Assembly: GCA_045593305.1 (NCBI GenBank)
Contig: JAZNWI010000181.1
Span: 8,831 to 72,830, forward strand
From: Clostridia bacterium
GTDB taxonomy: Bacteria > Bacillota > Clostridia > UBA1381
Direction: 5' to 3'
Length of the DNA stretch: 64,000 nucleotides
The position numbers and the translations under genes were made by a program. Positions 49,343 through 64,000 of this stretch are shown one piece after another; positions within the stretch are counted from its first letter, which is position 1; every line of letters starts with the position of its first letter. Under the pieces are notes generated by a model that was not told where the DNA came from, did no database searches, and saw only the letters and a program-made list of their open reading frames with translations.

Positions 49343-49903
49343 TTAGTCCAAATGCATTTTATAGAATTTTGCCTTAAACGTTTGTGTGCCGTCAAAGGTG
49401 CTGTATTCTCCGTAATGGTCGAATGTTAAACCGCACTTTTCCATAACCTTGCCCGAAGCTGGATTATCAACTGCGTGGTTTGAAACAAAATCCTTTATTC
49501 CTTGCTGTGTATAGGCAAATTCAATCATCCGCTTTGTAGCTTCTGTGGTTAGGCCTTTGTTCCAATAATCTGAACGGATATTGTAACCAAAACCCCAAGC
49601 ACCCGGTTCTTTTTTGTCAGGACCAATGCTACAGCTACCTATTAAAAGATTGTTTTCTTTAAGCACAATTCCCCAGTGAAAATTTTTATCATTGGGGAGT
49701 ATAACATTTATCCAATGCAATACCTCATCTGTGTTTTTGTAAAGGTTATAAGGCATAAATTTATTAACTTTTTCATCACTCAACCATACGAAAGCAGCAT
49801 CTGCATCCTTTGGTGTAATAGGACGTAAAATCAGCCTTTCTGTTTCAAGTATGGGTGTGTTTTTTATGTATTTTATCTGTTTAATTTTTTGTATTATATT
49901 CAT
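49343..49903 (-). CDS. GNAT family N-acetyltransferase (RimJ/RimL-like)
   Basis: TERLILRPITPKDADAAFVW N-terminus and GNAT core. AAGAGGAAG RBS. ATGA overlap with the upstream gene. Confidence 0.85.
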   Translation of the reverse strand: MNIIQKIKQIKYIKNTPILETERLILRPITPKDADAAFVWLSDEKVNKFMPYNLYKNTDEVLHWINVILPNDKNFHWGIVLKENNLLIGSCSIGPDKKEPGAWGFGYNIRSDYWNKGLTTEATKRMIEFAYTQQGIKDFVSNHAVDNPASGKVMEKCGLTFDHYGEYSTFDGTQTFKAKFYKMHLD

Positions 49904-51021
49904 CGTTTCTTCCTCTTTTCTGTTTCTATTGCTATAAAGGGAACAGTCATTTCTTCTTCTGTAAGACCTGCGTGAACACCAACCATTTCAAAATCGCCTC
50001 GTTTATAGTCAATATTGATTTCACCAAGAGCAACTGCGAAAAAGTCACCTATAAAGTTTGCGGTTTTCGGATGCGGTGTTCCAAAACCTAAAATATTTTC
50101 AGAGAACACTTCTTCCTTTGTCATTAACCTGAAAGACTCACCGAATATTTTGTTGAATTCTGTTTTGAATTCTTCTGTTTTTCCGTCTTTAATAAACAAA
50201 CTTAAAGCTCTTGGTTCAATAGATGGTGGTATTTTTAAAAGTTCTGTTATTTGGGGATAGTCCTCTAAATATTCTGTTTTCCCATCACAAAGTCCGTGGT
50301 CAGCGGTGATAATTACAAGTGAATCCTTTAATTTACCACAAAGCTTTTCAACCTCGCTGTTAATATGCAAAATCTCTTTGTGTGCTTCAGGACTTGTTAC
50401 TCCGTGACCGTGCATTGCATGGTCAGGCTGATTCCAATAAGCATAGATATATTTCTTCTTTCTCTTTTTAGAAAGCTTGTATATCGTCTTGCAAATATCC
50501 TCAACACTTTTGACACGATATTTTGAAAAGAAGGCTACACAGTAAGCACTTTTTCTGCCCTTTACCTTTTCAATTCTTTGCATAATGTTTTTGTAAGGAA
50601 TGTATTTGTGAGCCACGTTGTATTTTGCAGCAGGCTCACCATTTCTTTGCAAGGTATTTTTGAAAACTGCAACATTTTCTCCGATTTCTTCAAAGTATAA
50701 GTCCCAGCCAAGCCATCCACATTCCAACGGAGAATATCCACTTAAAATAGATGTGGTTGCTGCAACGGTTGTTGATGGGAAAACGGAAGAAATATCGGTT
50801 ACATAATGTTTCCTTAAAAAATCATTTTCTTCGAGATGATAGTTCAAGGTTGAAGTTCCCAATCCGTCAAAAAGAATTACTATAATATTTTTGTAGTCTT
50901 TCTGGAGTAATTTATCAAATTCGGGTAAGGTTTTATGTTGGCAGTCCTTTACGCCGAAATGGTTTAAAACTGATGAAGCAATCGAAAGTATGCTTCTATC
51001 GTAGTTTGGATATTTAATCAT
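49900..51021 (-). CDS. alkaline phosphatase superfamily protein (nucleotide pyrophosphatase/phosphodiesterase-like)
   Basis: LFDGLG, FPSTTVAATTSILSG and ITADHG metal/nucleophile motifs. AAGGAG RBS before ATG 51021. Confidence 0.8.
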   Translation of the reverse strand: MIKYPNYDRSILSIASSVLNHFGVKDCQHKTLPEFDKLLQKDYKNIIVILFDGLGTSTLNYHLEENDFLRKHYVTDISSVFPSTTVAATTSILSGYSPLECGWLGWDLYFEEIGENVAVFKNTLQRNGEPAAKYNVAHKYIPYKNIMQRIEKVKGRKSAYCVAFFSKYRVKSVEDICKTIYKLSKKRKKKYIYAYWNQPDHAMHGHGVTSPEAHKEILHINSEVEKLCGKLKDSLVIITADHGLCDGKTEYLEDYPQITELLKIPPSIEPRALSLFIKDGKTEEFKTEFNKIFGESFRLMTKEEVFSENILGFGTPHPKTANFIGDFFAVALGEINIDYKRGDFEMVGVHAGLTEEEMTVPFIAIETEKRKKR

Positions 51022-51395
51022 AATTTCTACTCCTTTCAAAGTTGTATTGAGAATAAAAGTAACCGGTGTAAGCTTTGCAGTAAGCCTACACCGGTATAAT
51101 CATATCGTTAACAAATCACTTTAGTTTTGTCGAAATGAGTATAGAGGCATAGACCTGCAAGAAAGATCGTAATCGTTCTTTGCAAGCCAGGAATTCTGCA
51201 TATCTTGTTTTTTGAGAAGATATGTGTTCATAACCTTTACCTCGTTTTTATATTTTCGCACACTATAACACAAGTTTTTTGAGTTGTCAAGAAAAAGTTT
51301 TTAATTACACTTCTCTTATATCAATGGTAAGATTATGATGTTATATATGTTATGGCGTAGGTTACTGAGAATTCCAATGCGAAGGAGCTGAGTTT

Positions 51396-51503: not shown

Positions 51504-51524
51504 AGATTGACGGAGTGTGATTTT

Positions 51525-53600
51525 ATGACTTTTGATTTTAATACAGCAGTTAAGCTTTATAAAGAAAATCCTACAAATGAAAAGTTAAATGAAGTCGCAG
51601 AAAAGCTTCTTTCTGAAATGACTCTTAAAGAAAAAATAAAGATGATGCAGGGGCACGCTATGGGTGTAACAATAAAAAATGTTTTCACTCGTGGCAGATA
51701 TTATAACGGTGAAGCATATCCTGCAGGAGGTTGCAAAAGACTGGGGATTCCGCCCGTTCTTTTTACTGACGGACCTCGTGGTATAGTTATGGGAAAATGC
51801 ACTTGTTTCCCTGTTTCTATGCTTCGTGGTGCTACATTTGACGATGAATTGGAATATGAAATCGGCAAGGTTATGGCAAAAGAAGCCGGTGCTTTTGGTG
51901 CAAATCTATTTGCCGGTGTATGTATAAACTTACTTCGCCATCCCAAATGGGGCAGAGCACAGGAGACTTATGGTGAGGACCCGTTTTTGCTTGGCAAAAT
52001 GGGTGCCGCGCTCACAAAAGCAATGCAGGAAAACGGTATAATTGCCTGTCCTAAGCACTATGCCCTTAACAGTATTGAAGATTTGCGATTTAGCGTTGAT
52101 GCAAAGGCAGCGGAAAGAACTCTTCACGAGGTTTATTTGCCTCATTTCAAAAAATGCATTGATGTCGGTGCAATGTCTATAATGGGTGCATATAATAAGG
52201 TAAATGGCACTTATGCGTGTGAAAATAAAGAGCTTTTAACTGACATTCTTCGTGATAAATGGGGCTTTGAGGGCTTTGCTCTTTCCGACTTCGTTTATGG
52301 TATTTATGATGCGGCAAGAAGCGTTAAGGCGGGTATGGATGTGGAAATGCCATATACCTTCAGATATGCTTTCCTGAACAGTAAGCTGAAAAAAGGTGAG
52401 CTTACCGAGGCTGATATTGATTTAAGTGCAGGAAGAGTTTTAAAAGCACTTATCAAAACTTTACCTGAATATAAAGAACAACCCAAGTCCGTTATTCTCG
52501 CAAAAGAGCATACCGAGTTGTCAAGAAAAGTTGCAGGTAAAGGTACAGTTCTCCTAAAAAATGAAAACAAAACATTACCTGTTGCTAACGGCAAAAAGAT
52601 AGCCGTTATTGGCAGATATGCCGATAAAATAAATGTTGGCGACCACGGTAGCAGTAATGTTTACAGTCCTTATACAGTAACCGCTTTTCAAGGCATCAAA
52701 AACCGCTTCGGTGCAGATAATGTTGTGGTTTATAACGGTTGTGATACTGCTAAAGCTACAGAATCGGTTAAGTATTGTGACTACATAGTTGCTTGTGTAG
52801 GAAGTGATTACAAGCAAGAGGGCGAGTTCCTTGTGAATCTCGGTAACATCAAGCAAAAGCCTGTAGGTAAAGGTGGCGACAGAGTCAATTTAAGAATACC
52901 TGACGAAGATGTTGCACTGATTAAAGCTTTATCCCAAACAGGTAAAAAACTTATAGTTAATATAATGGGCGGTAGTGCCTATGTTATTAAAGAGTGGAAC
53001 GATTTGGCAGATGCAATTCTCTTCTCATTCTATAGCGGTCTTGAGGGCGGAAACGCTCTTGCAGATGTTTTAAGCGGTGATGTAAACCCCGGCGGTAAAT
53101 TGCCCTTTACAATTGCTTTCAACGACGAGGATTACCCATCATTTTTACATATTGAAGATAGTGGCAGAGGAATTAATTACGGTTACTACCACGGCTACAC
53201 CTTGTTTGACAAAAAAGGTATAGAGCCTCAATATCCTTTTGGTTACGGATGTTCATATACGGATTTTGTAATTGAAAACCCGAAGGTTTTACAAACTGAA
53301 AAAGTGATTCAGGTTTCAGCGGATGTTAAAAATATCGGTGCTGTTGATGGTGATGAGGTTCTGCAGATTTATGTTTCAAGCGAAAATGCACAAGAAGACA
53401 GACCGGTTAAGCTTCTTAAAGGCTTTAAACGAGTGACTGTAAAAGCAGGGGAGAGCGTAGGAGCAAAGGTTGTAATAGACCTTGAAGATATAAAATTCTA
53501 TAATGCAGAAGAGGGCGAATGGGAGCTTGATAGGAGCTACACAATTCTTGTGGGTACGAATAGCCGAAATGCAAAGATAGTTGGCAGAGTTGAGTTTTGA
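51525..53600 (+). CDS. GH3 family beta-glucosidase / beta-hexosidase
   Basis: LTLKEKIKMMQG, KHYALNS, GFALSDF (nucleophile Asp region). 691 aa. Confidence 0.9.
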   Translation: MTFDFNTAVKLYKENPTNEKLNEVAEKLLSEMTLKEKIKMMQGHAMGVTIKNVFTRGRYYNGEAYPAGGCKRLGIPPVLFTDGPRGIVMGKCTCFPVSMLRGATFDDELEYEIGKVMAKEAGAFGANLFAGVCINLLRHPKWGRAQETYGEDPFLLGKMGAALTKAMQENGIIACPKHYALNSIEDLRFSVDAKAAERTLHEVYLPHFKKCIDVGAMSIMGAYNKVNGTYACENKELLTDILRDKWGFEGFALSDFVYGIYDAARSVKAGMDVEMPYTFRYAFLNSKLKKGELTEADIDLSAGRVLKALIKTLPEYKEQPKSVILAKEHTELSRKVAGKGTVLLKNENKTLPVANGKKIAVIGRYADKINVGDHGSSNVYSPYTVTAFQGIKNRFGADNVVVYNGCDTAKATESVKYCDYIVACVGSDYKQEGEFLVNLGNIKQKPVGKGGDRVNLRIPDEDVALIKALSQTGKKLIVNIMGGSAYVIKEWNDLADAILFSFYSGLEGGNALADVLSGDVNPGGKLPFTIAFNDEDYPSFLHIEDSGRGINYGYYHGYTLFDKKGIEPQYPFGYGCSYTDFVIENPKVLQTEKVIQVSADVKNIGAVDGDEVLQIYVSSENAQEDRPVKLLKGFKRVTVKAGESVGAKVVIDLEDIKFYNAEEGEWELDRSYTILVGTNSRNAKIVGRVEF

Positions 53601-53966: not shown

Positions 53967-54587
53967 TTAATCTTTAATACGCTTTATATGAAATCTTCCA
54001 CGGGCACTAGGGTGGTAGCAATCAAGAACCATTGCGTTTTCAGGTAGCCAATCTTTAACTGTACCGTAGGTGCCGCCGCATATTACTATTTGGGGTGATA
54101 AAAGTTCAATTTCTTTTTTTATAAAAGGCTCATAAAGTTTTGCATAATTCGCCAATCTGCTGTGGTTGGTTGAACCATATCCTCCGCGTTTGTTAAGGTT
54201 CATATATGCACAGTTTTCAGCATCTTTATCCGTGTAGTTATTACTCGCGTCCAATTCATTTAAGGTCTTTAACACCTTTTTTATGAAATCGTAATAAACA
54301 GTCATATATTCTTTTGAGTCTTTCATTGCAAAAGTGTCTTCAAATTCGCCTATTTTTTCATTAACTGAAACATTAGATTCTCTGCATATTATCAAAATAC
54401 CATTAAATTTCATCTCTGATGAAATATAACCATCGGGACAAAAACTGTTTTTGAAGGTTTCATAATCGGGGCTCATACCGTTAATTTTGGGGAATGTTTT
54501 TTTGCAAGAATTTTCATCTTCGGCTTCTTGTGCTTTTTTCCATAATGTAAAAAGTTCCTCTAAAGTAGTAATGTTTTTAATTTCCAT
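53967..54587 (-). CDS. uracil-DNA-glycosylase-superfamily-like protein with non-canonical motifs
   Basis: AGGTGA RBS before ATG 54587. 206 aa. Order of elements: ILIICRESN (motif-A position), AYMNLNKRGG, PQIVICGGTYG, CYHPSARG (motif-B-like HPS). Confidence 0.5.
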   Translation of the reverse strand: MEIKNITTLEELFTLWKKAQEAEDENSCKKTFPKINGMSPDYETFKNSFCPDGYISSEMKFNGILIICRESNVSVNEKIGEFEDTFAMKDSKEYMTVYYDFIKKVLKTLNELDASNNYTDKDAENCAYMNLNKRGGYGSTNHSRLANYAKLYEPFIKKEIELLSPQIVICGGTYGTVKDWLPENAMVLDCYHPSARGRFHIKRIKD

Positions 54588-54653
54588 ATTATCACCTGAA
54601 AAAATTATATCATAATTATCGTAAATCTCAATAATGCGATTATTACAAAAATG

Positions 54654-54673
54654 ATGCACTCTTTTTGGTGCAT
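54654..54673. promoter_or_regulatory. Perfect 6-N8-6 inverted repeat ATGCAC-N8-GTGCAT in the divergent promoter region
   Basis: Read directly. Lies 8 nt upstream of the TTGTGT -35-like hexamer of the WYL gene. Confidence 0.45.
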
Positions 54674-54680
54674 ATAACAC

Positions 54681-54708
54681 TTGTGTTATGGTGCAGATAT
54701 GGTACAAT
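54681..54708 (+). promoter_or_regulatory. Sigma-A-like promoter of the WYL regulator gene (TTGTGT-N16-TGgTACAAT)
   Basis: Extended -10 TGGTACAAT at 54700-54708. It contains GGTACA, the reverse complement of the TGTACC motif seen at the two downstream promoters. Confidence 0.5.
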
Positions 54709-54743
54709 AGTATTGTTATCATAGCGATTTGAGGAGTGTTGTT

Positions 54744-55727
54744 ATGGCTGAACTTGAACCTAAAAAATTGGCGTTAATCCGTATTTTGCAAATTTTTGAG
54801 AAATACAGTGATTTTGACCATCCTTTAAAGCAGGAAGATATTGCGAACTATCTTGAAGATGATTACGGAATTGTTATTGAGAGAAAGGCAATCGGAAGAA
54901 ACATATCTCTTCTTAAAGAGGCGGGGTATGAAATCGAATCAACCAGAGCGGGTAGTTTCCTTGAAGCGCGGGCTTTTGAGGATTCGGAGCTTCGTATGCT
55001 TATTGATGGGGTTCTTTCAAGTACGCATATTGCACCTAAATATTCAAAGGATTTAATTGAAAGACTTTGCGGTCTGTCGAATGTTTATTTTAAATCCCAC
55101 ATTAAAAATATTTATTCCGTAAACGATTGGAACAAGACGGATAATATCGCTCTTTTCTATAATATAGATATGATAGATTTGGCTATCGAAAAGGGTGTGC
55201 AGATTGCTTTTGATTACAATAAGTTCGGTGTGGATAAAAAGCTGCATAAATCTGCTTCTCACAAGGCGAGTCCTTATCAGCTTATTCTTCATAACCAACG
55301 CTATTATTTAATGGCGCTTAACGAAAGATGGCACAATATGGGTTTTTACAGACTTGACAGAATCAGCAATATGACTCTTATTGAGGACAGACCTTTAACC
55401 AATATTCGTACTGTTGAGGGTTACGAAAACGGAATTGATTATAAGGAAATAGCGACAGGTCTTCCTTATATGTTCACAGATAAGCCTCAACCTATTGAAT
55501 TTATTTCAGATAAAAAAATTATCGACCAGATTGTTGATTGGTTCGGTAGAGATATTAAATTTACCGAGCTCAGCAAAGATAAGGTGAAGGTTGAATTAAC
55601 CGCAAGTCCCAATGCAATGGAGCACTGGGCAAAGCAGTATCTTGGCTTTGTTGAAATTACAAAACCTTTGGAGCTTCGTCAGAAGATTAAAGAAATATTG
55701 GTTGATGCTAAAAAAAGATATAAATAA
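54744..55727 (+). CDS. WYL-domain transcriptional regulator (BrxR/CapW-like architecture)
   Basis: GAGGAG RBS. N-terminal wHTH (LKQEDIANYLEDDYGIVIERKAIGRNISLLKEAG). WYL-type core RYYLMALNERWHNMGFYRLDRISNM. 327 aa. Confidence 0.85.
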   Translation: MAELEPKKLALIRILQIFEKYSDFDHPLKQEDIANYLEDDYGIVIERKAIGRNISLLKEAGYEIESTRAGSFLEARAFEDSELRMLIDGVLSSTHIAPKYSKDLIERLCGLSNVYFKSHIKNIYSVNDWNKTDNIALFYNIDMIDLAIEKGVQIAFDYNKFGVDKKLHKSASHKASPYQLILHNQRYYLMALNERWHNMGFYRLDRISNMTLIEDRPLTNIRTVEGYENGIDYKEIATGLPYMFTDKPQPIEFISDKKIIDQIVDWFGRDIKFTELSKDKVKVELTASPNAMEHWAKQYLGFVEITKPLELRQKIKEILVDAKKRYK

Positions 55728-55740
55728 ATATATTTTTTAT

Positions 55741-55773
55741 AAACCGCCACGCAGAAATGCGTGGCGGTTTTTG
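55741..55773 (+). terminator. Rho-independent terminator after the WYL gene
   Basis: Perfect 12-bp stem AAACCGCCACGC / GCGTGGCGGTTT followed by TTTTT. Confidence 0.9.
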
Positions 55774-55807
55774 TGTACCTAAAACAGTACATAAGATTTT
55801 GTATAAT
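55769..55807 (+). promoter_or_regulatory. Promoter/operator cassette: TTTTGTGTACC, inverted repeat GTGTAC-N8-GTACAT, then TATAAT
   Basis: GTGTAC at 55773 and TATAAT at 55802, a 29-nt offset. The inverted repeat covers the -35 position. Confidence 0.5.
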
Positions 55808-55839
55808 ATATTTACGATGAAAATTTGGGAGGTTTAAAG

Positions 55840-57861
55840 ATGGTTTTTTATAAGATTGAAGCAGCTATTGATGATGTTGAAAATAATGTTGATTTGAAGG
55901 ATAGGAAATCTATGAAAACATTGGCAGATGAGCTTTGTGAAAAAAGTGAATCTTTTTATCAAAAAAGTAAGCAACAGAATTTTGTTTTTGCAGTGGGAGT
56001 CAGAAATGAAAAAATTACTTTTGGAATGATTCTCAGAACCAATGGCGACATAGATAATATTTTTGCAAAATTCGAGAAAATATTACCATTTGAATTAAAG
56101 AAGGTTTTGTTTGAAGAAATTACTTTCAGAGCATTTCATTCTATGCTTAACAGTGCTGTGCGTAATGATTTTGTTTATGATAATGATGATGTTTTAGATG
56201 CATTCGGAATAAGCGGGATTGGTGATAGGTATTGCCATATCCCTTATGGTGAAGCGGTAATTGAAGATAATGTTAATTCAGAAAAAATGTTTCAGTTTGC
56301 AGATGAAAATCTGTTCAGAGAAACTCTGAGACCTGAACTTGAAAGAATATACATAAAAAACACCTGCAATGTATTTAAAGGTCATCCGGTGCATTACATA
56401 ATAAGAAGCGATGAACGGGAATTGAAAAAAGAGATATATCGCACCTTGCTTGCGGCGCTTTATGATAACGGACGAATACAGAATAAGAGATATTGTTTCG
56501 TGGACTATGATAATAAATGCCGGGTTCCCGGTCAAAGTTTTGAGGCTCTTTATAAAAGCTGCGAGGGCGGAGCAATGATAATTCGTTATGGTAATGAAAC
56601 AGATAATGATGGTGAATATGCAAGGCGTGATGAAGAGGTTATTTCAGCTTTGTGTGAAACGGCGGTGAAGTATAAAAACAAGGTTCTGACAATAATTTGC
56701 CTTCCTTGTGCCGGCACCAAAGTAAAGGAAATGTTTTTAATGAATTTCGGTGTAACTTCCTTTGTGGAAATTTTTGAGGATGTAGTCCATAAGAAACAGG
56801 CGCAGGAGTATCTCAGAAACAAGGCGAAGCAATTGAAAATAAGAAGTGACAAAAAGTTGATAGATTTATCTGACGATAATGATAAATGTTATACCGTAAC
56901 CGAACTTAATCGTATTTTTGATGAATGGCATGATAAAAAACTTCGTAACACAATTTTTCCTCAATACAAGCAAGCGCAAACAACGAAAGTTAAACTAAAT
57001 AAAGAAGAACCCAAGGGGAGTGCTTATGAAAAACTGCAAAAACTTATTGGTTTGAGTGAAGCCAAAAAGGTTATGAACCAAGCCCTTAATTTTTATAAAG
57101 CACAGAAAATATTTGAAGATAGAGGTTACTCAAAGGACCGTCCTGCTATGCATATGGTATTCACAGGCAATCCGGGAACTGCAAAAACAACTGTGGCAAG
57201 GCTTTTTGCGCAGATTATGAAAGAAAATGGACTTTTGTCAAAAGGTGATTTGTATGAAGTGGGCAGAGGAGATATCGTTGGAAAATATGTCGGCTCCACA
57301 GCACCTTTAGTACAAAAGTTATTCAGAGAAGCCAAAGGCAGTGTTTTGTTTATTGATGAGGCGTATTCTCTTGTTGATGACAGAGATGGGCTTTACGGTG
57401 ACGAAGCAATAAATACCATAGTTCAGGAGATGGAAAATAATCGTGAAGATACCGTTGTTATTTTTGCAGGGTATCCTGATAAAATGAACGGCTTTTTAGA
57501 CAAAAATCCCGGACTTCGCTCACGTATTGCTTTCCATATACCTTTTGAAGATTATAATTCAAAAGAGCTTTGCGATATCGCAAAGTTGATTGCCGCAAAT
57601 AAAGGTTTAGAGTTAACTGAAGAAGCAACAGAAAAATTAGAAACAGTTTTTGAATCTGCGATATTAAGCCCTGATTTTGGTAACGGCAGATACGCAAGAA
57701 ATATCATAGAAAAGGCTAAAATATCACAAGCCAACAGACTTGTTTCTATGGATTTAGATAAGATTGCGGATGAAGATATCACTACACTTCGTGCGGAAGA
57801 TATAGAAGAACCTTTTACAACCAAAACAGAAGAAAATATCAAAATAGGCTTTGCCATATAA
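55840..57861 (+). CDS. CbbX/SpoVK-type AAA+ ATPase with ~430-aa N-terminal region containing a P-loop-less AAA-like segment
   Basis: GGGAGG RBS. Walker A GNPGTAKT. Walker B VLFIDEAYSL. GYVGSTAPLVQKLF is typical of the CbbX/SpoVK clade. N-terminal segment KGHPVHYIIRSDE...GGAMIIRYGN. Confidence 0.85.
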   Translation: MVFYKIEAAIDDVENNVDLKDRKSMKTLADELCEKSESFYQKSKQQNFVFAVGVRNEKITFGMILRTNGDIDNIFAKFEKILPFELKKVLFEEITFRAFHSMLNSAVRNDFVYDNDDVLDAFGISGIGDRYCHIPYGEAVIEDNVNSEKMFQFADENLFRETLRPELERIYIKNTCNVFKGHPVHYIIRSDERELKKEIYRTLLAALYDNGRIQNKRYCFVDYDNKCRVPGQSFEALYKSCEGGAMIIRYGNETDNDGEYARRDEEVISALCETAVKYKNKVLTIICLPCAGTKVKEMFLMNFGVTSFVEIFEDVVHKKQAQEYLRNKAKQLKIRSDKKLIDLSDDNDKCYTVTELNRIFDEWHDKKLRNTIFPQYKQAQTTKVKLNKEEPKGSAYEKLQKLIGLSEAKKVMNQALNFYKAQKIFEDRGYSKDRPAMHMVFTGNPGTAKTTVARLFAQIMKENGLLSKGDLYEVGRGDIVGKYVGSTAPLVQKLFREAKGSVLFIDEAYSLVDDRDGLYGDEAINTIVQEMENNREDTVVIFAGYPDKMNGFLDKNPGLRSRIAFHIPFEDYNSKELCDIAKLIAANKGLELTEEATEKLETVFESAILSPDFGNGRYARNIIEKAKISQANRLVSMDLDKIADEDITTLRAEDIEEPFTTKTEENIKIGFAI

Positions 57862-57875
57862 AAAGGAGAATAGAT

Positions 57876-58634
57876 ATGGATAAATTACCAATTATGTACA
57901 ATGACTATCAAATGAATAAAATTCAAAAGTTTATAGATAAAAACTTTGGTCGGGGTAGCGGATTTCTGTATCATGAAATTTATAGCGAATATGTTCATAC
58001 AGATGTATATGTTGCTGTTAATGAAGACGGCGTAAAAAATTTGGTTACATTCGGAATGAGTGCTCGCGAAATGTGTCCGGCAGTAATTGGATTTGGAAGT
58101 ATAGAGTTTGTTATGAAGCTATCAAAAGAAATTGATGCTAAAAGCAAAGAGGCGTGTGTCGTAACAGGTGAATTACAAAGTTTAAGTAAATTTCCTTTCA
58201 GAGAAAACACTTGTTTGGGTCCCGGGCACACGATTAATGTTTCAAAACAATTTAAAGACACATTCGGTTATGATTATGTGGTTTTTTATGACTCGGGCTT
58301 AACATTCAAAATGTCAAAATCAAAAGAAGTTAAGTTTTTATTGGCTGTTCCTGTTTACAAGGAGGAAAGGGAATGGATGGTAGAAAACGACAGTTTCTTA
58401 TTTTTGGATGAATTGCTTGATGAATATGGCGAAAATGTCTTTAAGGTTGACTTTCGAAGAGATGTTTTGATACCGAATTATACAATCGACCCCGAAGAGT
58501 TAAGTCTTATGAGAGTTCTTGGAATTGATTCGGAAACATTAAGCTGTCTGAGTGACTATCTGAGTCAAATGGAAGAACAAGGTGCAGAAATAACATATGA
58601 AATGATAGCTAAATGGATTGAAGAAAATAAATAA
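57876..58634 (+). CDS. SUFU-like (suppressor-of-fused family) protein
   Basis: GFLYHEIYSEYVHTDVYV...NLVTFGMSAREM matches the bacterial SUFU pattern (HE...D.hiDV...lvT.GmS..M). 252 aa. Confidence 0.55.
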   Translation: MDKLPIMYNDYQMNKIQKFIDKNFGRGSGFLYHEIYSEYVHTDVYVAVNEDGVKNLVTFGMSAREMCPAVIGFGSIEFVMKLSKEIDAKSKEACVVTGELQSLSKFPFRENTCLGPGHTINVSKQFKDTFGYDYVVFYDSGLTFKMSKSKEVKFLLAVPVYKEEREWMVENDSFLFLDELLDEYGENVFKVDFRRDVLIPNYTIDPEELSLMRVLGIDSETLSCLSDYLSQMEEQGAEITYEMIAKWIEENK

Positions 58635-58639
58635 GAAAA

Positions 58640-58674
58640 CGAGTCTTTCGAAGTTTCGGAAGACTCGCTTTTGT
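58640..58674 (+). terminator. Rho-independent terminator after the AAA-SUFU operon
   Basis: CGAGTCTTTCGAA / TTCGGAAGACTCG stem followed by CTTTTGTG. Confidence 0.85.
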
Positions 58675-58707
58675 GTACCGAAATTGGTTCGCAAGAATTG
58701 CTATACT
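58669..58707 (+). promoter_or_regulatory. Second copy of the cassette: TTTTGTGTACC, N8, GTTCGC, then TATACT
   Basis: GTGTAC at 58673 and TATACT at 58702, the same 29-nt offset as at 55773/55802. The right half-site is degenerate. Confidence 0.45.
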
Positions 58708-58770: not shown

Positions 58771-61700
58771 ATGTCAAAGAAAAAAGATGTTAATGCTGTT
58801 GAAGTAGCGAATGAAAAACGAAAAATTCTATTTAACTTTTATGACAGTATCAAAAAAGGCGGTGCAGTTTTTTCTAATGAAGATTTTGAGATAGCAATAG
58901 AATCTTTAAAGTATGCACAATTAGACATAAGAGAGCAGGAGAAAAGAGCCAGGGAGGAGAGAGAGGCAGAGCTGCTTAAAAAGAAAATGGAAGAAGAGGA
59001 AACCAGAAGAAAAGCGGCAGAAATCAGAGCGGCACGAAGAGCTGAACGCAAACGCAGAGAACGTGCGGAGCAAATCAGCGCAATGGAATTGCCAATGGAT
59101 TTCGTTAACTCTTTTGAAGATGATGCACGCGCCAATATTCATTGCGACAGTATATCCGATGCATTATTTGTTTCTATTGATTCTTTAGGGCTTGTTGATA
59201 TTGAGTTTATTGCTTCAATTACAGGGGAAGAAATGAAAACTGTAATCGAAACATTAAAAGGTTCAATTTATCAGAATCCGCTTCATTGGGAGGAATGCTT
59301 TTATAAAGGTTGGGAAACAGCAGAAGAATATCTTTCGGGAAATCTTATGCATAAATATCAATTAGCTATGGAAGCAAATACTGAATACCCCGGTTGTTTT
59401 GATGATAATATAAAAGCTTTGTTGGAGGTTATGAACCCTGAACTTACCACAGACGAGATTTATATAACATTGGGCTCTCCCTGGGTGCCTACAGATATTA
59501 TAGATGACTTTATTATGCATTTAATAGGCTACGAAAAGTATGGAGGGGAGTACCCGAAGGAAGTAGAATCATTTATTACTAAAGAAAATGCTGTGCGCCA
59601 CGATGAAATTACAGGTATCTGGGAAATACCCAATAAAACAAGGTTCAGAAAAAGTAAGGAGCATGGTAAATACGAGGAGATAAATTATTCTACATACGGA
59701 ACCAAAAGAATGGACATGCTTTACCTTTTGGAAAATATTCTTAATATGAAAACTCTGGCAATTTTTGACACCACCGACCCTAATAGCAAAACAAGAATTC
59801 TTAATCAGAATGAAACAGTAAAAATTTTGGAAAAGCAAGATAAGATGGTTCAGGAATTTCAGAAATGGGTATGGGAAGACGAGGAACGGAAAAGAAGATT
59901 GAGCGGAGCATATCACCGTAAATACGGCAGCATTAAAAAACGTGTTTTTGACGGTTCGTTTTTAGAATTTCCTGATATGAATCCCGAAATTGAACTGCGC
60001 CCACACCAAAAAAATTCGGTGGCAAGAATTATTTTTTCTCCCAATACATTGTTAGCTCATGATGTAGGCGCAGGAAAAACTTATACAATGATCGCTGCGG
60101 GTATGGAGTTGAAAAGGCTTGGAAAATCACAAAAGAATTTATATGTAATTCCCAATAATATTTTGCCCCAATGGGTTGAAATGTTCAAAAAAATGTACCC
60201 TGACGCAAATTTACTTGTTGTCAACAATAAAAACTTCAACTCGAAAAAACGAAATGAAACCTTAAACAGAATAATGGAGGAGGATTTCGATGCAATTCTT
60301 ATGGCATACAGCTCCTTTGATTTATTATCTCTTTCTAAAAAATATTATCAGGATATGTATGAAGAACAACTGTCTTTGTTGGATAAAGCATCCACAAGCT
60401 TTGAAGGTAAGGTGGTTTCAAGAAAACGCGAGAGCGTTGTGAAAACACTTGATAAATTACAAGATAATATGGTTTCAAATGTTTGTGAAGTGGCTTTTGA
60501 TGAGTTGGGTATTAACACCCTTTTTGTTGATGAAGCGCACAACTATAAAAATGTTTCATTGGATTCGGCTATCTCAAGGGTAAGAGGTATATCGAAAAGC
60601 GGTTCAAGAAAATGCGATGCGTTGATGGATAAGGTTCATTGCGTTCAACGCCAGAATAACGGCGGCAGAGTAATTCTTGCAACGGGAACGCCCATTACAA
60701 ACTCTATCAGCGATATTTTTATTATGCAAAAATATCTGCAAGATGGCGAATTGGAATTTTTAGGAATTCAGAATTTCGATTCATGGGTTGGTATGTTCGG
60801 AAAAAAGACTACAGAATTTGAAATTGATGTTGATACAAATTCATATCATCTTGCCACCCGTTTTTCAAAATTCTATAACGTTCCCGAGCTTACTGCGATT
60901 CTTTCGTCAATAGCTGATTTTTATCATATTGACCAATCTGTCGGGATACCTGAATTTGATGGCTACACTGATTCAGTTCGTGTGGGTAGCGATGATTTCA
61001 AAGTGTTTTTGAAGGATATATCCAAAAGAGCAGATGATGTAAGAAAAAAACGCGTCAAACCTAAAGACGATAATTTGCTGAAAATTACAACCGATGGCAG
61101 AAAAGCGGCTCTTGATATGAGGCTTATTGATATGGTTTATGGTCTGGATTTCGATTCAAAGGTTTTCAGATGTGCAGAAAATATTATGGAAATATACAAT
61201 AAAACCCGTGACGAAAAACTTATACAAATGGTTTTCTGTGATACATCTACACCGAAAAATTCCTTTAATTTATATGACGAACTAAAAACTATATTGAAAG
61301 CTATGGGTATGCCCGAAAATGAAATAGCTTTTATACACGAGGCAGATACCGAGGTGAAGAAGAAACTACTTTTCAGAGATTTGAGAAATGGGATTAAATC
61401 CGTTGTTATCGGTTCAACATTTAAAATGGGTTTGGGTGTAAATGTTCAGAAAAGACTTTGCGCGTTGCATCATCTCGATGTTCCGTGGCGGCCTGCAGAT
61501 ATGGTGCAACGAGAAGGAAGAATTCTAAGACAGGGGAATAAATGCGAAGCGGTACAGATTTTCAGGTATATTACCCGTGGAAGCTTTGACGCTTATTCCT
61601 GGCAGTTGCTTGAAGCAAAACAAAAATTTATAAGTCAGATTTTGTCAGGACATGTTGTTGTTCGTGAGGGCGACGATGTTGACGAAAGTGTGTTGACTTA

Positions 61701-62391
61701 TGCAGAGGTTAAGGCATTGGCGGTAGGTAATCCTCTTATTAAAAAGCGCGTTGAAATTATAAATGAATTAGATAAATACAGAATACTTCAGCGCGATTAT
61801 ACCGAGTCCCGTTATTTGAAACAAAAGACATTAGCAGAGATTCCCGAAAAGATAGAACAACAAAAGGAACGAATCGCAAACACGCAGCTTGATATGGAGT
61901 TTTATGCAGCGCATGGAAATGATTATGAAGATATGAGTTACGAAGAACAAAAGGCTATAAGAGATGCAATATTTTCTGCGGTAAAAACTCATATTAACCA
62001 AAGCTATGAAAAGAAAATTCTGAATTATCAGGGCTTTGACGTGGTTGTTCCTGCACGTATGCAGCCAAAAGTAGTGAAAAGCAAAAATAAGGCAGAAGAT
62101 GGCTCGGCAACTGAAAAAGAGAGGATTCCTTATGTTTTTGTTAAACGAAAAGGCGTTTATTATATGGAAATTGAGAGCGTCGCGGGTATAACGAAACGTT
62201 TGAATAATTTGCTTGATAACCTTGCACAGACGAAACAAAGGCAAGAGGATGCGCTGGAAGACTTGTATTGTCAAAAGGCGGCAATTGAAGAAGAGCTTAA
62301 AACCAACACACAAAGCTATGAATTAGAAATCGAAAGCTTAAAAGCAGAGCTTGAAAAAATTGATGAAGAATTAGGAGTGGCAGCAGCATGA
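58771..62391 (+). CDS. SNF2-family helicase with charged coiled-coil N-terminus and coiled-coil C-terminus (no methyltransferase domain seen)
   Basis: Motif I DVGAGKTYT. Motif II FVDEAHNYKN. Helicase-C motif VPWRPADMVQREGRILRQGN. N-terminal WETAEEYLSGNL / GSPWVP region. 1206 aa. Confidence 0.9.
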   Translation: MSKKKDVNAVEVANEKRKILFNFYDSIKKGGAVFSNEDFEIAIESLKYAQLDIREQEKRAREEREAELLKKKMEEEETRRKAAEIRAARRAERKRRERAEQISAMELPMDFVNSFEDDARANIHCDSISDALFVSIDSLGLVDIEFIASITGEEMKTVIETLKGSIYQNPLHWEECFYKGWETAEEYLSGNLMHKYQLAMEANTEYPGCFDDNIKALLEVMNPELTTDEIYITLGSPWVPTDIIDDFIMHLIGYEKYGGEYPKEVESFITKENAVRHDEITGIWEIPNKTRFRKSKEHGKYEEINYSTYGTKRMDMLYLLENILNMKTLAIFDTTDPNSKTRILNQNETVKILEKQDKMVQEFQKWVWEDEERKRRLSGAYHRKYGSIKKRVFDGSFLEFPDMNPEIELRPHQKNSVARIIFSPNTLLAHDVGAGKTYTMIAAGMELKRLGKSQKNLYVIPNNILPQWVEMFKKMYPDANLLVVNNKNFNSKKRNETLNRIMEEDFDAILMAYSSFDLLSLSKKYYQDMYEEQLSLLDKASTSFEGKVVSRKRESVVKTLDKLQDNMVSNVCEVAFDELGINTLFVDEAHNYKNVSLDSAISRVRGISKSGSRKCDALMDKVHCVQRQNNGGRVILATGTPITNSISDIFIMQKYLQDGELEFLGIQNFDSWVGMFGKKTTEFEIDVDTNSYHLATRFSKFYNVPELTAILSSIADFYHIDQSVGIPEFDGYTDSVRVGSDDFKVFLKDISKRADDVRKKRVKPKDDNLLKITTDGRKAALDMRLIDMVYGLDFDSKVFRCAENIMEIYNKTRDEKLIQMVFCDTSTPKNSFNLYDELKTILKAMGMPENEIAFIHEADTEVKKKLLFRDLRNGIKSVVIGSTFKMGLGVNVQKRLCALHHLDVPWRPADMVQREGRILRQGNKCEAVQIFRYITRGSFDAYSWQLLEAKQKFISQILSGHVVVREGDDVDESVLTYAEVKALAVGNPLIKKRVEIINELDKYRILQRDYTESRYLKQKTLAEIPEKIEQQKERIANTQLDMEFYAAHGNDYEDMSYEEQKAIRDAIFSAVKTHINQSYEKKILNYQGFDVVVPARMQPKVVKSKNKAEDGSATEKERIPYVFVKRKGVYYMEIESVAGITKRLNNLLDNLAQTKQRQEDALEDLYCQKAAIEEELKTNTQSYELEIESLKAELEKIDEELGVAAA

Positions 62392-63497
62392 GTTCAACAA
62401 ATATAAATATGCCGGTATTATCCGTAGAAAAAACCATAAAAACATTATCGGAATCTTATTGTGAAGTTATAAAAAAAGATTTGCCTATGAAAATACTACC
62501 TTCTGTTATGCTTTGGGGACCTCCCGGTGTAGGTAAATCTCAGGCAATAAGGCAGATTGCCAAAAACATTGAGTCGCAAACAAGAAAAAGGGTTGAAGTT
62601 ACAGATGTCAGACTGCTTCTTTTTAATCCTATTGACCTTCGAGGAATACCTACTGCAAACGCAGATAAAACCTTGGCAATATGGTTGAAACCGCAAATAT
62701 TTCAGATGAGCGACAGCGAAGATGTTATCAATATACTTTTTCTTGATGAGATTTCTGCAGCACCTCAGTCGGTGCAGGCTGCGGCTTATCAGATAACTCT
62801 TGACAGAGTTGTTGGTGAGCATAAATTGCCGGATAACTGCATTGTAGTTGCTGCAGGTAACCGAGTTACAGATAAATCCGTTTCTTTTAAAATGCCTAAA
62901 GCTCTTGCAAACCGTTTGTTACATATTGAAATTGAGGGTAGCTTCGATTCCTGGCTTAATTGGGCTATGAAATCAGGTGTAAACGAAAAAGTTATCGGTT
63001 ATTTATCTTATCGGACAGACAGGCTTTTCGGTTTTGATGCGCAAAATGATGATCTTGCTTTCGCCACGCCCCGTTCATGGGAAATGGTAAGTAATTTGCT
63101 TAATAATGTTTCAGATAATGTTGTAAAAATATACCCGTTAATAGCGGGTCTTGTGGGTAATGGTGTTGCTTATGAATTCAGATCCTGGTGCAAGATGACT
63201 GATTTGCCCAAAGTGGAAGATATTTTTAACGGAAAGGAAAAAAACTTGCCTGAAACCGGCGATGCTTTGTATGCGGTAGTAGCTTCCATGGTGTCTTATG
63301 CCAGAGATTGTAAATATGATTTAGACAAAATGGGACATTCTCTCAGGTACGCTTATAATATGCCTGCTGATTATGTAGCGTTTTTATTGAAAAATTATGA
63401 AACTTTTTCAGATGATTATAAAAATACTTTATTACAGATTCCCGAATATATAAAACTTGCGGGAAAGAATGGTGTTGTTCGCAATGGCTCAGTTTGA
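62388..63497 (+). CDS. MoxR-like AAA+ ATPase (AAA_5 type)
   Basis: Walker A GPPGVGKS. Walker B ILFLDEIS. VVAAGNR. Start overlaps the SNF2 stop. Confidence 0.85.
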   Translation: MSSTNINMPVLSVEKTIKTLSESYCEVIKKDLPMKILPSVMLWGPPGVGKSQAIRQIAKNIESQTRKRVEVTDVRLLLFNPIDLRGIPTANADKTLAIWLKPQIFQMSDSEDVINILFLDEISAAPQSVQAAAYQITLDRVVGEHKLPDNCIVVAAGNRVTDKSVSFKMPKALANRLLHIEIEGSFDSWLNWAMKSGVNEKVIGYLSYRTDRLFGFDAQNDDLAFATPRSWEMVSNLLNNVSDNVVKIYPLIAGLVGNGVAYEFRSWCKMTDLPKVEDIFNGKEKNLPETGDALYAVVASMVSYARDCKYDLDKMGHSLRYAYNMPADYVAFLLKNYETFSDDYKNTLLQIPEYIKLAGKNGVVRNGSV

Positions 63498-64000
63498 TAA
63501 GCAAACCTTAGATATTGTTAAGAGATTGCAAAGCGCAAGACTCTCTCTTTTATCAAAACAACCTTTTTACGCTTTGCTTTTGATGAATATGAAATTTGCT
63601 TTAGATATAACCTGCAAAACCGCTTACACAGACGGAACAAGAATAGCATTTAACCCTGACTTTATAAATATGTTAAGCGATAGCGAATTGGAGTTTGTTT
63701 TAATGCACGAGGTTTTGCACGTTGCGTTAGGTCACCCTTTTAGATTTCAGGCTGATTATGATTTGGAAGCGTATGATTTAGCATGTGATATTGTGGTTAA
63801 TTCCAATATATTGAAAAGCTTCGGTATGGACCGCAGGAAAATCACTTTGAAAGAATACGGTGAATTAATTCATATTGCGCCGGATGGAACAGAAGGCTAT
63901 GAATATACGGTTGAGCAGGTTTATATACAGATACTTAAAAAAAGAAAAAAGGAAAAAGATAGTGATTCAGCGAATGATGAAGGTGAGCCCCAAGATGATC
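63484..64000 (+). CDS. DUF2201-type putative metallopeptidase / VWA-like protein, N-terminal part (runs off window)
   Basis: ATG 63484 overlaps the MoxR stop. KQPFYALLLMNMKF...TDGTRIAFNP...LMHEVLHVALGH (HExxH). Frame is open to position 64000. Confidence 0.8.
   Translation, partial: MAQFDKQTLDIVKRLQSARLSLLSKQPFYALLLMNMKFALDITCKTAYTDGTRIAFNPDFINMLSDSELEFVLMHEVLHVALGHPFRFQADYDLEAYDLACDIVVNSNILKSFGMDRRKITLKEYGELIHIAPDGTEGYEYTVEQVYIQILKKRKKEKDSDSANDEGEPQDD

Follow-up and report, generated by a model that had tools for sequence, protein, structure and literature searches.

A 64,000-nucleotide stretch of a contig from a Clostridia bacterium (GenBank assembly GCA_045593305.1, contig JAZNWI010000181.1), called the window here at its full length, carries a gene for a WYL-domain regulator flanked by separately terminated transcription units. 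The locus raises the question of how one regulator could govern several such units, and whether it would do so by repression or by activation. An earlier note on this DNA had proposed that a shared operator/promoter cassette links the WYL gene to the operons downstream of it, and had called the regulator a repressor. The cassette is supported by the analysis presented here. The label of repressor is not established, because the site takes up the -35 slot with a constant spacing to the -10 hexamer, an arrangement also found at promoters activated by the WYL protein DriD. Taken as a whole, the locus is best explained, with a probability of about 0.55, by operators for a WYL dimer, each set in a standard promoter module, together with a DriD-like activation.

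Operator sites in the window

Three palindromic sites of the form TGYACC-N6-GGTRCA, named O1 to O3, lie around the WYL gene. Their scores come from a weight matrix built on palindromic seeds from other loci, with the window and its seven closest relatives left out.

54639-54644, minus strand: AATAAT, a -10-like hexamer exactly 10 nt from O1, towards the UDG-like gene
54655-54672: operator O1, TGCACT-cttttt-GGTGCA, 22.0 bits, the window's top match to the independent matrix
54744-55727, plus strand: WYL regulator gene, 327 aa, with winged helix-turn-helix (wHTH)-WYL-WCX architecture
55741-55773, plus strand: intrinsic terminator of the WYL gene, 13-bp stem and T-tract, -24.2 kcal/mol, z -6.9
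55774-55791: operator O2, TGTACC-taaaac-AGTACA, 19.7 bits
55802-55807, plus strand: TATAAT, the -10 hexamer 10 nt after O2, without a -35 hexamer
58636-58672, plus strand: intrinsic terminator of the AAA-SUFU operon, -19.4 kcal/mol, z -4.7, also found by the consensus scan
58674-58691: operator O3, TGTACC-gaaatt-GGTTCG, 14.0 bits
58702-58707, plus strand: TATACT, the -10 hexamer 10 nt after O3

The three sites are the three best matches of the matrix in the 64 kb, the next match scoring 11.6 bits, and the 54 kb of the window that lie beyond the island contain no matrix site. First-order Markov randomised windows contain on average 0.02 matches of at least 19 bits and 0.23 matches of at least 13 bits. 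Both downstream sites lie directly 3' of strong terminators with a hairpin and a T-tract, as the earlier note had described. The consensus terminator scan missed the one at 55741-55773, a tool artefact in which the stem is drawn out into the T-tract.

The 11-mer TTTTGTGTACC, reported previously behind both terminators, occurs at 55769-79 and 58669-79, and these are its only two exact copies in the window. GTGTAC starts at 55773 and at 58673, in each case 29 nt before a -10 hexamer. The repetition of the 11-mer was rejected as significant by itself, with 1,949 distinct 11-mers present at least twice in the window. The 30 nt following the 11-mer are identical in register at 19 of 30 positions between the two copies (P about 1e-4). 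Upstream of the WYL gene, ATGCAC-N8-GTGCAT indeed forms a perfect 20-bp palindrome (54654-54673), and GGTACA is found at 54701-06 within TGgTACAAT. The inverted repeat holds, but the 6-N8-6 geometry first assigned to it gives way to a better register, 6-N6-6, which contains the 5-N8-5 core described before. The consensus of that core, TGYAC-N8-GTRCA, is observed twice in the window versus 0.17 expected, as a pattern defined post hoc. At the first downstream site, only the form TGTAC-N8-GTACA is a perfect repeat. The right arm of O3, previously called degenerate, is a weak proximal half (1.2 bits, compared with 12.8 bits for the strong distal half), yet it keeps four of six bases in the 6-N6-6 register.

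O2 and O3 are standard cassettes of the family. The site orthologous to O2 precedes AAA genes in 18 related loci. The equivalent of O3 before the SNF2 gene is a perfect 29-bit site in L069, and sites are also present there in L025, L036, L059 and L064. In the close relative L004 (7020-7075), TTTTTGTGTACC stands directly after the WYL terminator and is followed by aaaagt-GGTGCT, 10 nt, TATAAT and the SNF2 gene; this site falls just below the 13-bit cut-off used across loci, so the site counts are conservative. Equivalents of O1 lie upstream of the WYL gene in L005 and L007, with weaker versions in other close relatives (L001-L010). In the window, O1 is positioned upstream of the -35 of the WYL promoter. 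Among the 141 sites described below, only four, O1 included, have cargo-type geometry on the minus strand.

A consensus sigma-70 scan of the window gave 17 promoter-like matches versus 19.7 expected and is uninformative here; it found no canonical sigma-70 promoters at O2 or O3. On the minus strand at 54604-54631, the scan marks a near-perfect TTGAGA-16-TATAAT with a preceding TG, whose predicted start falls inside the ribosome-binding site of the UDG-like gene.

Recurrence of the cassette in related loci

More than 3,600 relatives of the WYL protein were found at E<=1e-10, most of them in gut Oscillospiraceae, Acutalibacteraceae and other Clostridia. From a collection with one genome per species, 80 loci were fetched by the WYL gene, and ±6 kb of each was examined with a site cut-off of at least 13 bits. 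The element (A)TGYACC-N6-GGTRCA(T) lies upstream of many of the WYL genes and again after the WYL terminator. Together with the window, the loci contain 141 sites, of which 132 fall between genes, in DNA with a coding fraction of 87%. At least one site is present in 63 of the 80 loci, at least two in 37, at least three in 19 and at least five in 5, with a maximum of seven. A first-pass matrix that included the window's sites gave 133 matches of at least 14 bits versus about 3 in mononucleotide shuffles. In many species the palindrome stands at the same -10 distance before WYL genes and before orthologues of the AAA and SNF2 genes, which bears out the proposed cassette beyond the window.

The neighbourhood of the regulator is variable. 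Genes of the AAA, SUFU, SNF2 and MoxR-like kinds recur at changing distances, and the gene after the WYL gene differs even between regulators that are 87-92% identical. Outside the 18-bp core, the flanking positions -2 to -5 are complementary at a frequency of 0.45-0.51 versus 0.30-0.34 by composition (z 3-4.6). Their sequence is not conserved, and the complementarity may reflect longer half-sites that are specific to lineages.

Promoter geometry of the cargo cassettes

Comparison of the sites shows a fixed distance between operator and -10 hexamer. A match to TATAAT of at least 5/6 lies exactly 10 nt downstream, on the gene side, at 98 of the 141 sites, compared with an average of 4 at other offsets. 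When the sites before cargo genes are reduced to 75 non-redundant ones, such a match exactly 10 nt after the core is present at 63 and a perfect TATAAT at 38 of these, with no secondary peak at 9 or 11 nt. The sequence of the 10-nt spacer is not conserved. With the -10 hexamer placed at -12 to -7, the operator core reaches from -40 to -23. The last arm base and five spacer bases (typically C-AAATT) then occupy the -35 slot, which lies 17 nt upstream of the -10; they show no resemblance to TTGACA, indicating that the cargo cassettes have no -35 hexamer. The TG of an extended -10 is present in about 28% of the cargo cassettes, and the sites lie 40-65 nt before start codons. A T-run precedes about half of the cassettes, which explains the TTTT in the 11-mer, and a strong hairpin with a T-run precedes 28 of 96.

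Unlike the cargo promoters, the promoters of the WYL gene itself carry -35 hexamers. They occur in two arrangements. In the first, a normal -35 TTGATT is followed by the operator, the right arm of which forms the -10; the intact form in other species reads TTGATT-N-TGCACC-N6-GGTACAAT, where GGTACAAT is the -10. Binding of a protein to this operator must block the polymerase. In the second, to which the window belongs, the operator lies a few bases upstream of the -35. Within its predicted promoter the window also has a decayed operator, in which the right half-site of the first arrangement is retained.

54681-54708, plus strand: predicted WYL promoter, with -35 TTGTGT at 54681-86, a 16-nt spacer and the extended -10 TGgTACAAT at 54700-08
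54689-54706: decayed operator TGGTGC-agatat-GGTACA, right half 11.7 bits, left half -7.0 bits

The WYL regulator and the palindromes

The window regulator matches Pfam WYL (PF13280, E 2.8e-8) and the PADLOC WYL model (E 3.5e-21), with a weak Pfam HTH_11 match (E 0.021). Among the window regulator and 20 relatives, WYL together with WCX (PF25583) was found in 21 of 21 proteins and HTH_11 in 19. The predicted structure, with a predicted local distance difference test (pLDDT) score of 74.1, consists of a winged HTH, a helical linker, a beta-rich WYL domain and a C-terminal alpha/beta domain; residues 6-73 are modelled as three helices and a beta-hairpin wing (pLDDT 84-89). A first model (pLDDT 65.7), which gave no BrxR or CapW matches, was discarded in favour of this one, which shows both. 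All 32 significant Foldseek matches (E<=1e-3) are wHTH-WYL-WCX regulators. DriD and PafBC rank first (1.6e-11 to 5e-10), followed by BrxR (7e-9) and CapW (2.6e-7), with low template-modelling scores (TM-scores) for all (0.24-0.33) and a model of medium confidence. A profile search of solved structures retrieved DriD (E 0.07) and PafC only; BrxR and CapW were both absent up to an E of 10. By a weak margin, DriD and PafBC thus appear to be the nearest solved relatives. The WYL-domain motifs RYYL and YRLDRI are conserved. The RWHVR motif of the repressor group is not present, and the equivalent stretch, QRYYLMA, is invariant across the family.

The two arms of the palindrome vary independently and without compensatory covariation, C-A combinations being as common as T-G, so the element behaves as a protein site rather than a hairpin. 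A reading as an RNA or DNA hairpin was rejected on these grounds. No Rfam family matches in the window or in three related loci. The recognition helix, ERKAI[S/G]RNISLL, is nearly invariant, and its K52 variant tracks TGTCCC half-sites (13/22 vs 42/264, Fisher p 1.7e-5, a value uncorrected for shared ancestry). The conserved 6-N6-6 palindrome beside the WYL gene and the co-variation of helix and half-site would fit a homodimer on a palindrome of ~20 bp. Very probably, a dimer of the neighbouring wHTH-WYL-WCX protein binds the three palindromes of the window, each of which is part of a standard promoter module.

The association was also approached from the motif. A metagenome scan with the pattern ATGYACC-N6-GGTRCAT-N9-TATAAT gave 91 contig matches, where the estimated chance expectation is a handful. 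Of these 91 loci, 20 contain an open reading frame (ORF) of the WYL family; among the 33 that reach 8 kb or more, 11 do. A WYL gene detected by tblastn, or else a protein homologous to the AAA, SNF2 or MoxR-like AAA cargo of the window, is present in 32 of the 91. The WYL ORFs of the 20 loci include a distant paralogue that lies directly behind cassettes. Distant WYL paralogues of ~350 aa (hidden Markov model E ~1e-10) were observed in L087, L089, L093, L112, L131 and L143. Most of them start ~50 nt behind a standard cassette (e.g. L093, L112), and the paralogue ORF of L087 is placed ~1 kb upstream of the match to the pattern. A second family of regulators may therefore use this operator.

Comparison with characterised WYL regulators

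DriD of Caulobacter crescentus is a homodimeric wHTH-WYL-WCX activator (PMC9186387, PMC13004042). The DriD-polymerase structures (2026) show that its sites overlap the -35 position, that the regulated promoters have no -35 and that the -10 distance is identical in all targets (PMC13004042). In the didA oligonucleotides, an optimised -35 replaces positions 7-12 of the 20-bp DriD site (PMC13004042), which by our reading is the same register as in the cargo operators here. The window regulator has the domain order of DriD, which ranks, by a weak margin, as its best structural and sequence match among solved proteins. The cassettes share with the DriD targets a palindrome of ~20 bp over the place of the -35, promoters without a -35 and a constant -10 distance, and in both cases a site close to the gene of the regulator hints at negative autoregulation. 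However, the identity in the structural alignments is only 15-18%. The half-site here is TGYACC (GYAC-N8-GTRC) instead of CGAC-N7-GTCG, and the targets are anti-phage-like cargo clustered within the ±6 kb examined around the WYL gene instead of a dispersed DNA-damage regulon. Activation and the sensing of single-stranded DNA (ssDNA) would be further features in common with DriD.

PafBC of mycobacteria is a WYL activator that works through sigma adaptation at promoters without a -35, where its motif precedes the -10 by a short and constant distance (PMC11804915). Of the two half-sites here, the one proximal to the promoter (-28 to -23) would correspond in place to its '-26' motif. PafBC forms a heterodimer, recognises a motif that is not palindromic and places only one HTH on the DNA. 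The window has a single WYL gene, and both half-sites of the family motif are conserved, at 9.0 and 8.1 bits. A PafBC-like mechanism was rejected, given the single gene and the palindromic site. DdaA of Moraxellaceae activates DNA-damage genes and CRISPR and restriction-modification genes (PMC12392091), indicating that defence genes can be under WYL activation. As here, a short palindrome lies in the promoters of defence genes, in the case of DdaA CGWCA-N5-TGWCG. In contrast with the window, where the sites are confined to the island, the DdaA regulon is genome-wide and dominated by repair, and both motif and phylum differ.

BrxR (Escherichia fergusonii pEFER, Acinetobacter, Vibrio cholerae) and CapW are defence-linked WYL repressors (PMC9122601, PMC9122589, PMC11662680, PMC13622015), released by ssDNA (PMC9122601, PMC11662680, PMC13622015). 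Like the window regulator, they are wHTH-WYL-WCX proteins encoded at the head of or inside defence loci, with inverted repeats in the promoter regions, which BrxR and CapW bind as dimers. The pEFER BrxR also resembles the present case in having several sites in one island, its two boxes controlling two promoters. BrxR and CapW can bind with one half-site alone, a point that bears on O3 and on the half-site at the WYL -10. However, the BrxR boxes are 11-N5-11 repeats downstream of or beside the promoter and have no fixed relation to the -10. The window regulator further differs from BrxR and CapW in the missing RWHVR, the missing sequence-level match and their lower structural rank, and in having up to seven standardised cassettes per island in its family.

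Activation or repression

The preferred reading can be stated as follows. Each module would consist, often behind the terminator of the preceding unit, of TGYACC-N6-GGTRCA, exactly 10 nt and a near-consensus TATAAT, with the palindrome taking the place of the -35 hexamer. In the window, O1 would drive the UDG-like gene, O2 the AAA-SUFU pair and O3 the SNF2-MoxR-DUF2201 trio. One sensor thus probably co-regulates separately terminated cargo units in a variable island of the defence type. Without a -35, the cargo promoters would recruit RNA polymerase poorly when unaided. The WYL protein would act like the activator DriD, in that its ligand-bound dimer would bind the palindrome and help the polymerase onto the -10. 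By analogy, the ligand of the WYL domain may be ssDNA arising from phage attack or DNA damage. The regulator gene would be transcribed from a self-sufficient -35/-10 promoter, and the operator over this -10 in many species would provide negative feedback; in the WYL promoter of the window, only a half-site remains at the -10.

If the palindromes are dimer sites, DriD-like ligand-triggered activation combined with autorepression is modestly favoured, at slightly better than even odds and by analogy with DriD. It is favoured because the cargo promoters have the DriD layout and the regulator's own promoters are ordinary -35/-10 pairs, and because DriD and PafBC rank above BrxR and CapW and the RWHVR motif is replaced by RYYLM.

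Several points weigh against the preferred reading. Concerning the binder, the 80 loci were chosen by the WYL gene, so that the association of WYL gene and site is partly built in. The WYL gene is present in only 22% of the motif-anchored loci overall, many of the contigs being short, and the co-variation of helix and half-site may owe something to shared ancestry. In the window, the proximal half-site of O3 is poor and O1 lies outside the core of the WYL promoter. Concerning the sign of regulation, the structural preference for DriD and PafBC amounts to only 2-4 orders of magnitude in E-value, at a pLDDT of 74 and TM-scores of 0.24-0.33. The position from -40 to -23 is a classic repressor position too, and a perfect TATAAT could be self-sufficient once a repressor leaves. 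Finally, most of the defence-linked WYL regulators studied in direct experiments, namely BrxR and CapW, are repressors (PMC9122601, PMC11662680, PMC13622015).

Repression of the BrxR or CapW type is a substantial alternative, if the less probable one. In this alternative the WYL protein would block the polymerase at -40 to -23 in unstressed cells, and ssDNA would release it, derepressing the island and the regulator's own gene. It has the precedent that BrxR and CapW are wHTH-WYL-WCX repressors of inverted repeats in or beside core promoters, with two boxes in one island for the pEFER BrxR (PMC9122601, PMC11662680, PMC13622015). The operators here likewise overlap the core promoter of the cargo and, in many species, the -10 of the WYL gene, and the near-perfect -10 hexamers could make up for the absent -35. 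BrxR and CapW are significant Foldseek matches of the window regulator, which sits beside anti-phage-type genes as they do. However, a steric block needs no strict 10-nt spacing to the -10 across diverged spacers, and cargo promoters without a -35 and mostly without a TG would be weak even when unbound. In addition, the RWHVR motif of the repressor group (PMC11662680) is absent in favour of QRYYLMA, and the profile search that finds DriD and PafC finds neither BrxR nor CapW.

It is improbable that the palindromes are not WYL operators, and are instead sites of another protein, integron-like recombination sites or RNA/DNA hairpins linked to the WYL gene by co-residence. Such a reading could draw on the cargo, which differs between close relatives, so that some mechanism exchanges cassettes, on the excess palindromy at the flanking positions -2 to -5 (z 3 to 4.6) and on the 78% of motif-anchored metagenome loci that show no WYL gene in the contig DNA covered. 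However, the arms show no compensatory covariation, with C-A as common as T-G, and a fixed -10 distance with 40-65 nt to the start codons is the geometry of a promoter, not of a cassette end. The WYL gene, shared by all 80 loci by construction, is itself preceded by a promoter that contains the site, and changes in the recognition helix of its product go along with changes in the half-site. Moreover, a search of 2.9 million viral contigs found only one WYL relative. The islands are therefore not typically phage-borne, and a phage-borne island was rejected as a candidate.

Chance resemblance of AT-rich intergenic sequences within the window, for which the ordinary nature of repeated 11-mers and the post hoc consensus might speak, is refuted by the independent matrix, which picks exactly these three sites, and by more than 90 recurrences of the equally spaced cassette in other genomes.

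Cargo genes and island layout

The WYL gene of the window stands between a divergent gene and two operons of the same orientation.

51507-53600: GH3 glycosidase gene (Pfam/NCBIfam/PADLOC annotation)
53967-54587, minus strand: UDG-like gene, 206 aa, an ORF with an AGGTGA ribosome-binding site and a weak Pfam UDG match (E 0.008)
55840-58634, plus strand: cargo operon 1, with an AAA+ gene at 55840-57861 and a SUFU-domain gene at 57876-58634
58771-64000, plus strand: cargo operon 2, the SNF2-MoxR-DUF2201 trio, which reaches the window end
58771-62391, plus strand: SNF2-type helicase gene of cargo operon 2
62388-63497, plus strand: MoxR-like AAA gene of cargo operon 2
from 63484, plus strand, cut by the window end: gene of an HExxH protein whose orthologues are DUF2201_N/DUF2201 proteins

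The UDG-like gene is divergent from the WYL gene and is probably cargo served by O1. Homologues of its product at 30-40% occur in other WYL islands (L001-3, L027, L146), and a PDB sequence search with it gave no match. NCBIfam gave no match for the WYL, SUFU or UDG-like proteins. The AAA+ protein of cargo operon 1 is of the CbbX/SpoVK/EccA type, and no family model matches its N-terminal ~390 aa.

The genes directly behind the sites across the related loci include the WYL gene in 25 cases, the AAA gene in 18 and many others. One cluster of 16 proteins behind sites (93-1206 aa) contains nine that match the window's SNF2 helicase. Pfam and PADLOC annotation of the cargo revealed a retron-type reverse transcriptase (E 1.9e-117), a GajB-like helicase (E 4.5e-99), GmrSD, an IetA-like ATPase with an M41 domain, AriA/PtuA-like ATPases, a Cas4-like/DUF2779 nuclease, and NADAR, LRR and Sel1 proteins. 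Judged by these matches, the cargo content is that of a defence island. The AAA-SUFU pair and the SNF2-MoxR-DUF2201 trio are the most frequent cargo, with weak and partial PADLOC matches, and are candidates for uncharacterised defence systems. Two recurrent cargo families have no Pfam match, one of 188 aa (6 loci) and one of 365 aa (5 loci).

A gap of ~220 nt separates a WYL-type cassette from the gene of the retron-type reverse transcriptase in L020 (4589-4835) and also in L021, L032 and L038. The stretch 4640-4835 of L020 folds at -70.7 kcal/mol (z -6.6) with a long closing terminal inverted repeat, as in retron msr/msd RNA, and has no Rfam match.

Beyond the UDG-like gene, the GH3 gene adjoins the island in the window and in ~11 motif-anchored metagenome loci (L082, L085, L096, L097, L121, L130, L134, L135, L156, L158 and L171), with ~30% identity between loci, and its neighbourhood may be a conserved insertion hotspot. 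Just upstream of GH3, the minus strand at 49343-51039 encodes a phosphodiesterase-like protein with a secondary PglZ-domain match (E 8e-7) and a GNAT acetyltransferase. No operator was found near these two genes, which are probably unrelated to the island.

Implications for the regulation of defence islands

How costly or toxic anti-phage systems are kept silent until needed is only partly understood, and the characterised WYL examples cover one or two promoters each. A defence island under WYL regulation is a known kind. What distinguishes this one is a standardised cassette, present up to seven times per island, with a DriD-like promoter architecture. The cassette defines by its sequence a predicted regulon of separately terminated units around one regulator; these number at least three in the window island, and loci of relatives have as many as seven operator sites. 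It also provides a precise promoter model, with the operator in the -35 slot and 10 nt to the -10. As a simple DNA signature, it points to possible defence genes in gut Clostridia that have not been cultured, some of them recurrent cargo that defence databases do not contain.

A wider possibility, put forward tentatively and at somewhat less than even odds, is that gut Oscillospirales and other Clostridia possess 'plug-and-play' immune islands, in which each arriving defence unit would bring or acquire the same terminator-operator-N10-TATAAT module, one lacking a -35, and a single DriD-like nucleic-acid sensor would switch on the whole of a hypervariable arsenal only once infection or DNA damage supplies its ligand. 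With a similar degree of caution, this arsenal may comprise retrons, Gabija-like helicases, GmrSD and the uncharacterised AAA-SUFU and SNF2-MoxR-DUF2201 systems. If so, the cassette would serve as a standard of regulation and also as a means of finding new defence systems through 'guilt by operator'. If the regulator is an activator, the DriD mode would extend from DNA repair in Proteobacteria to the immune islands of Firmicutes.

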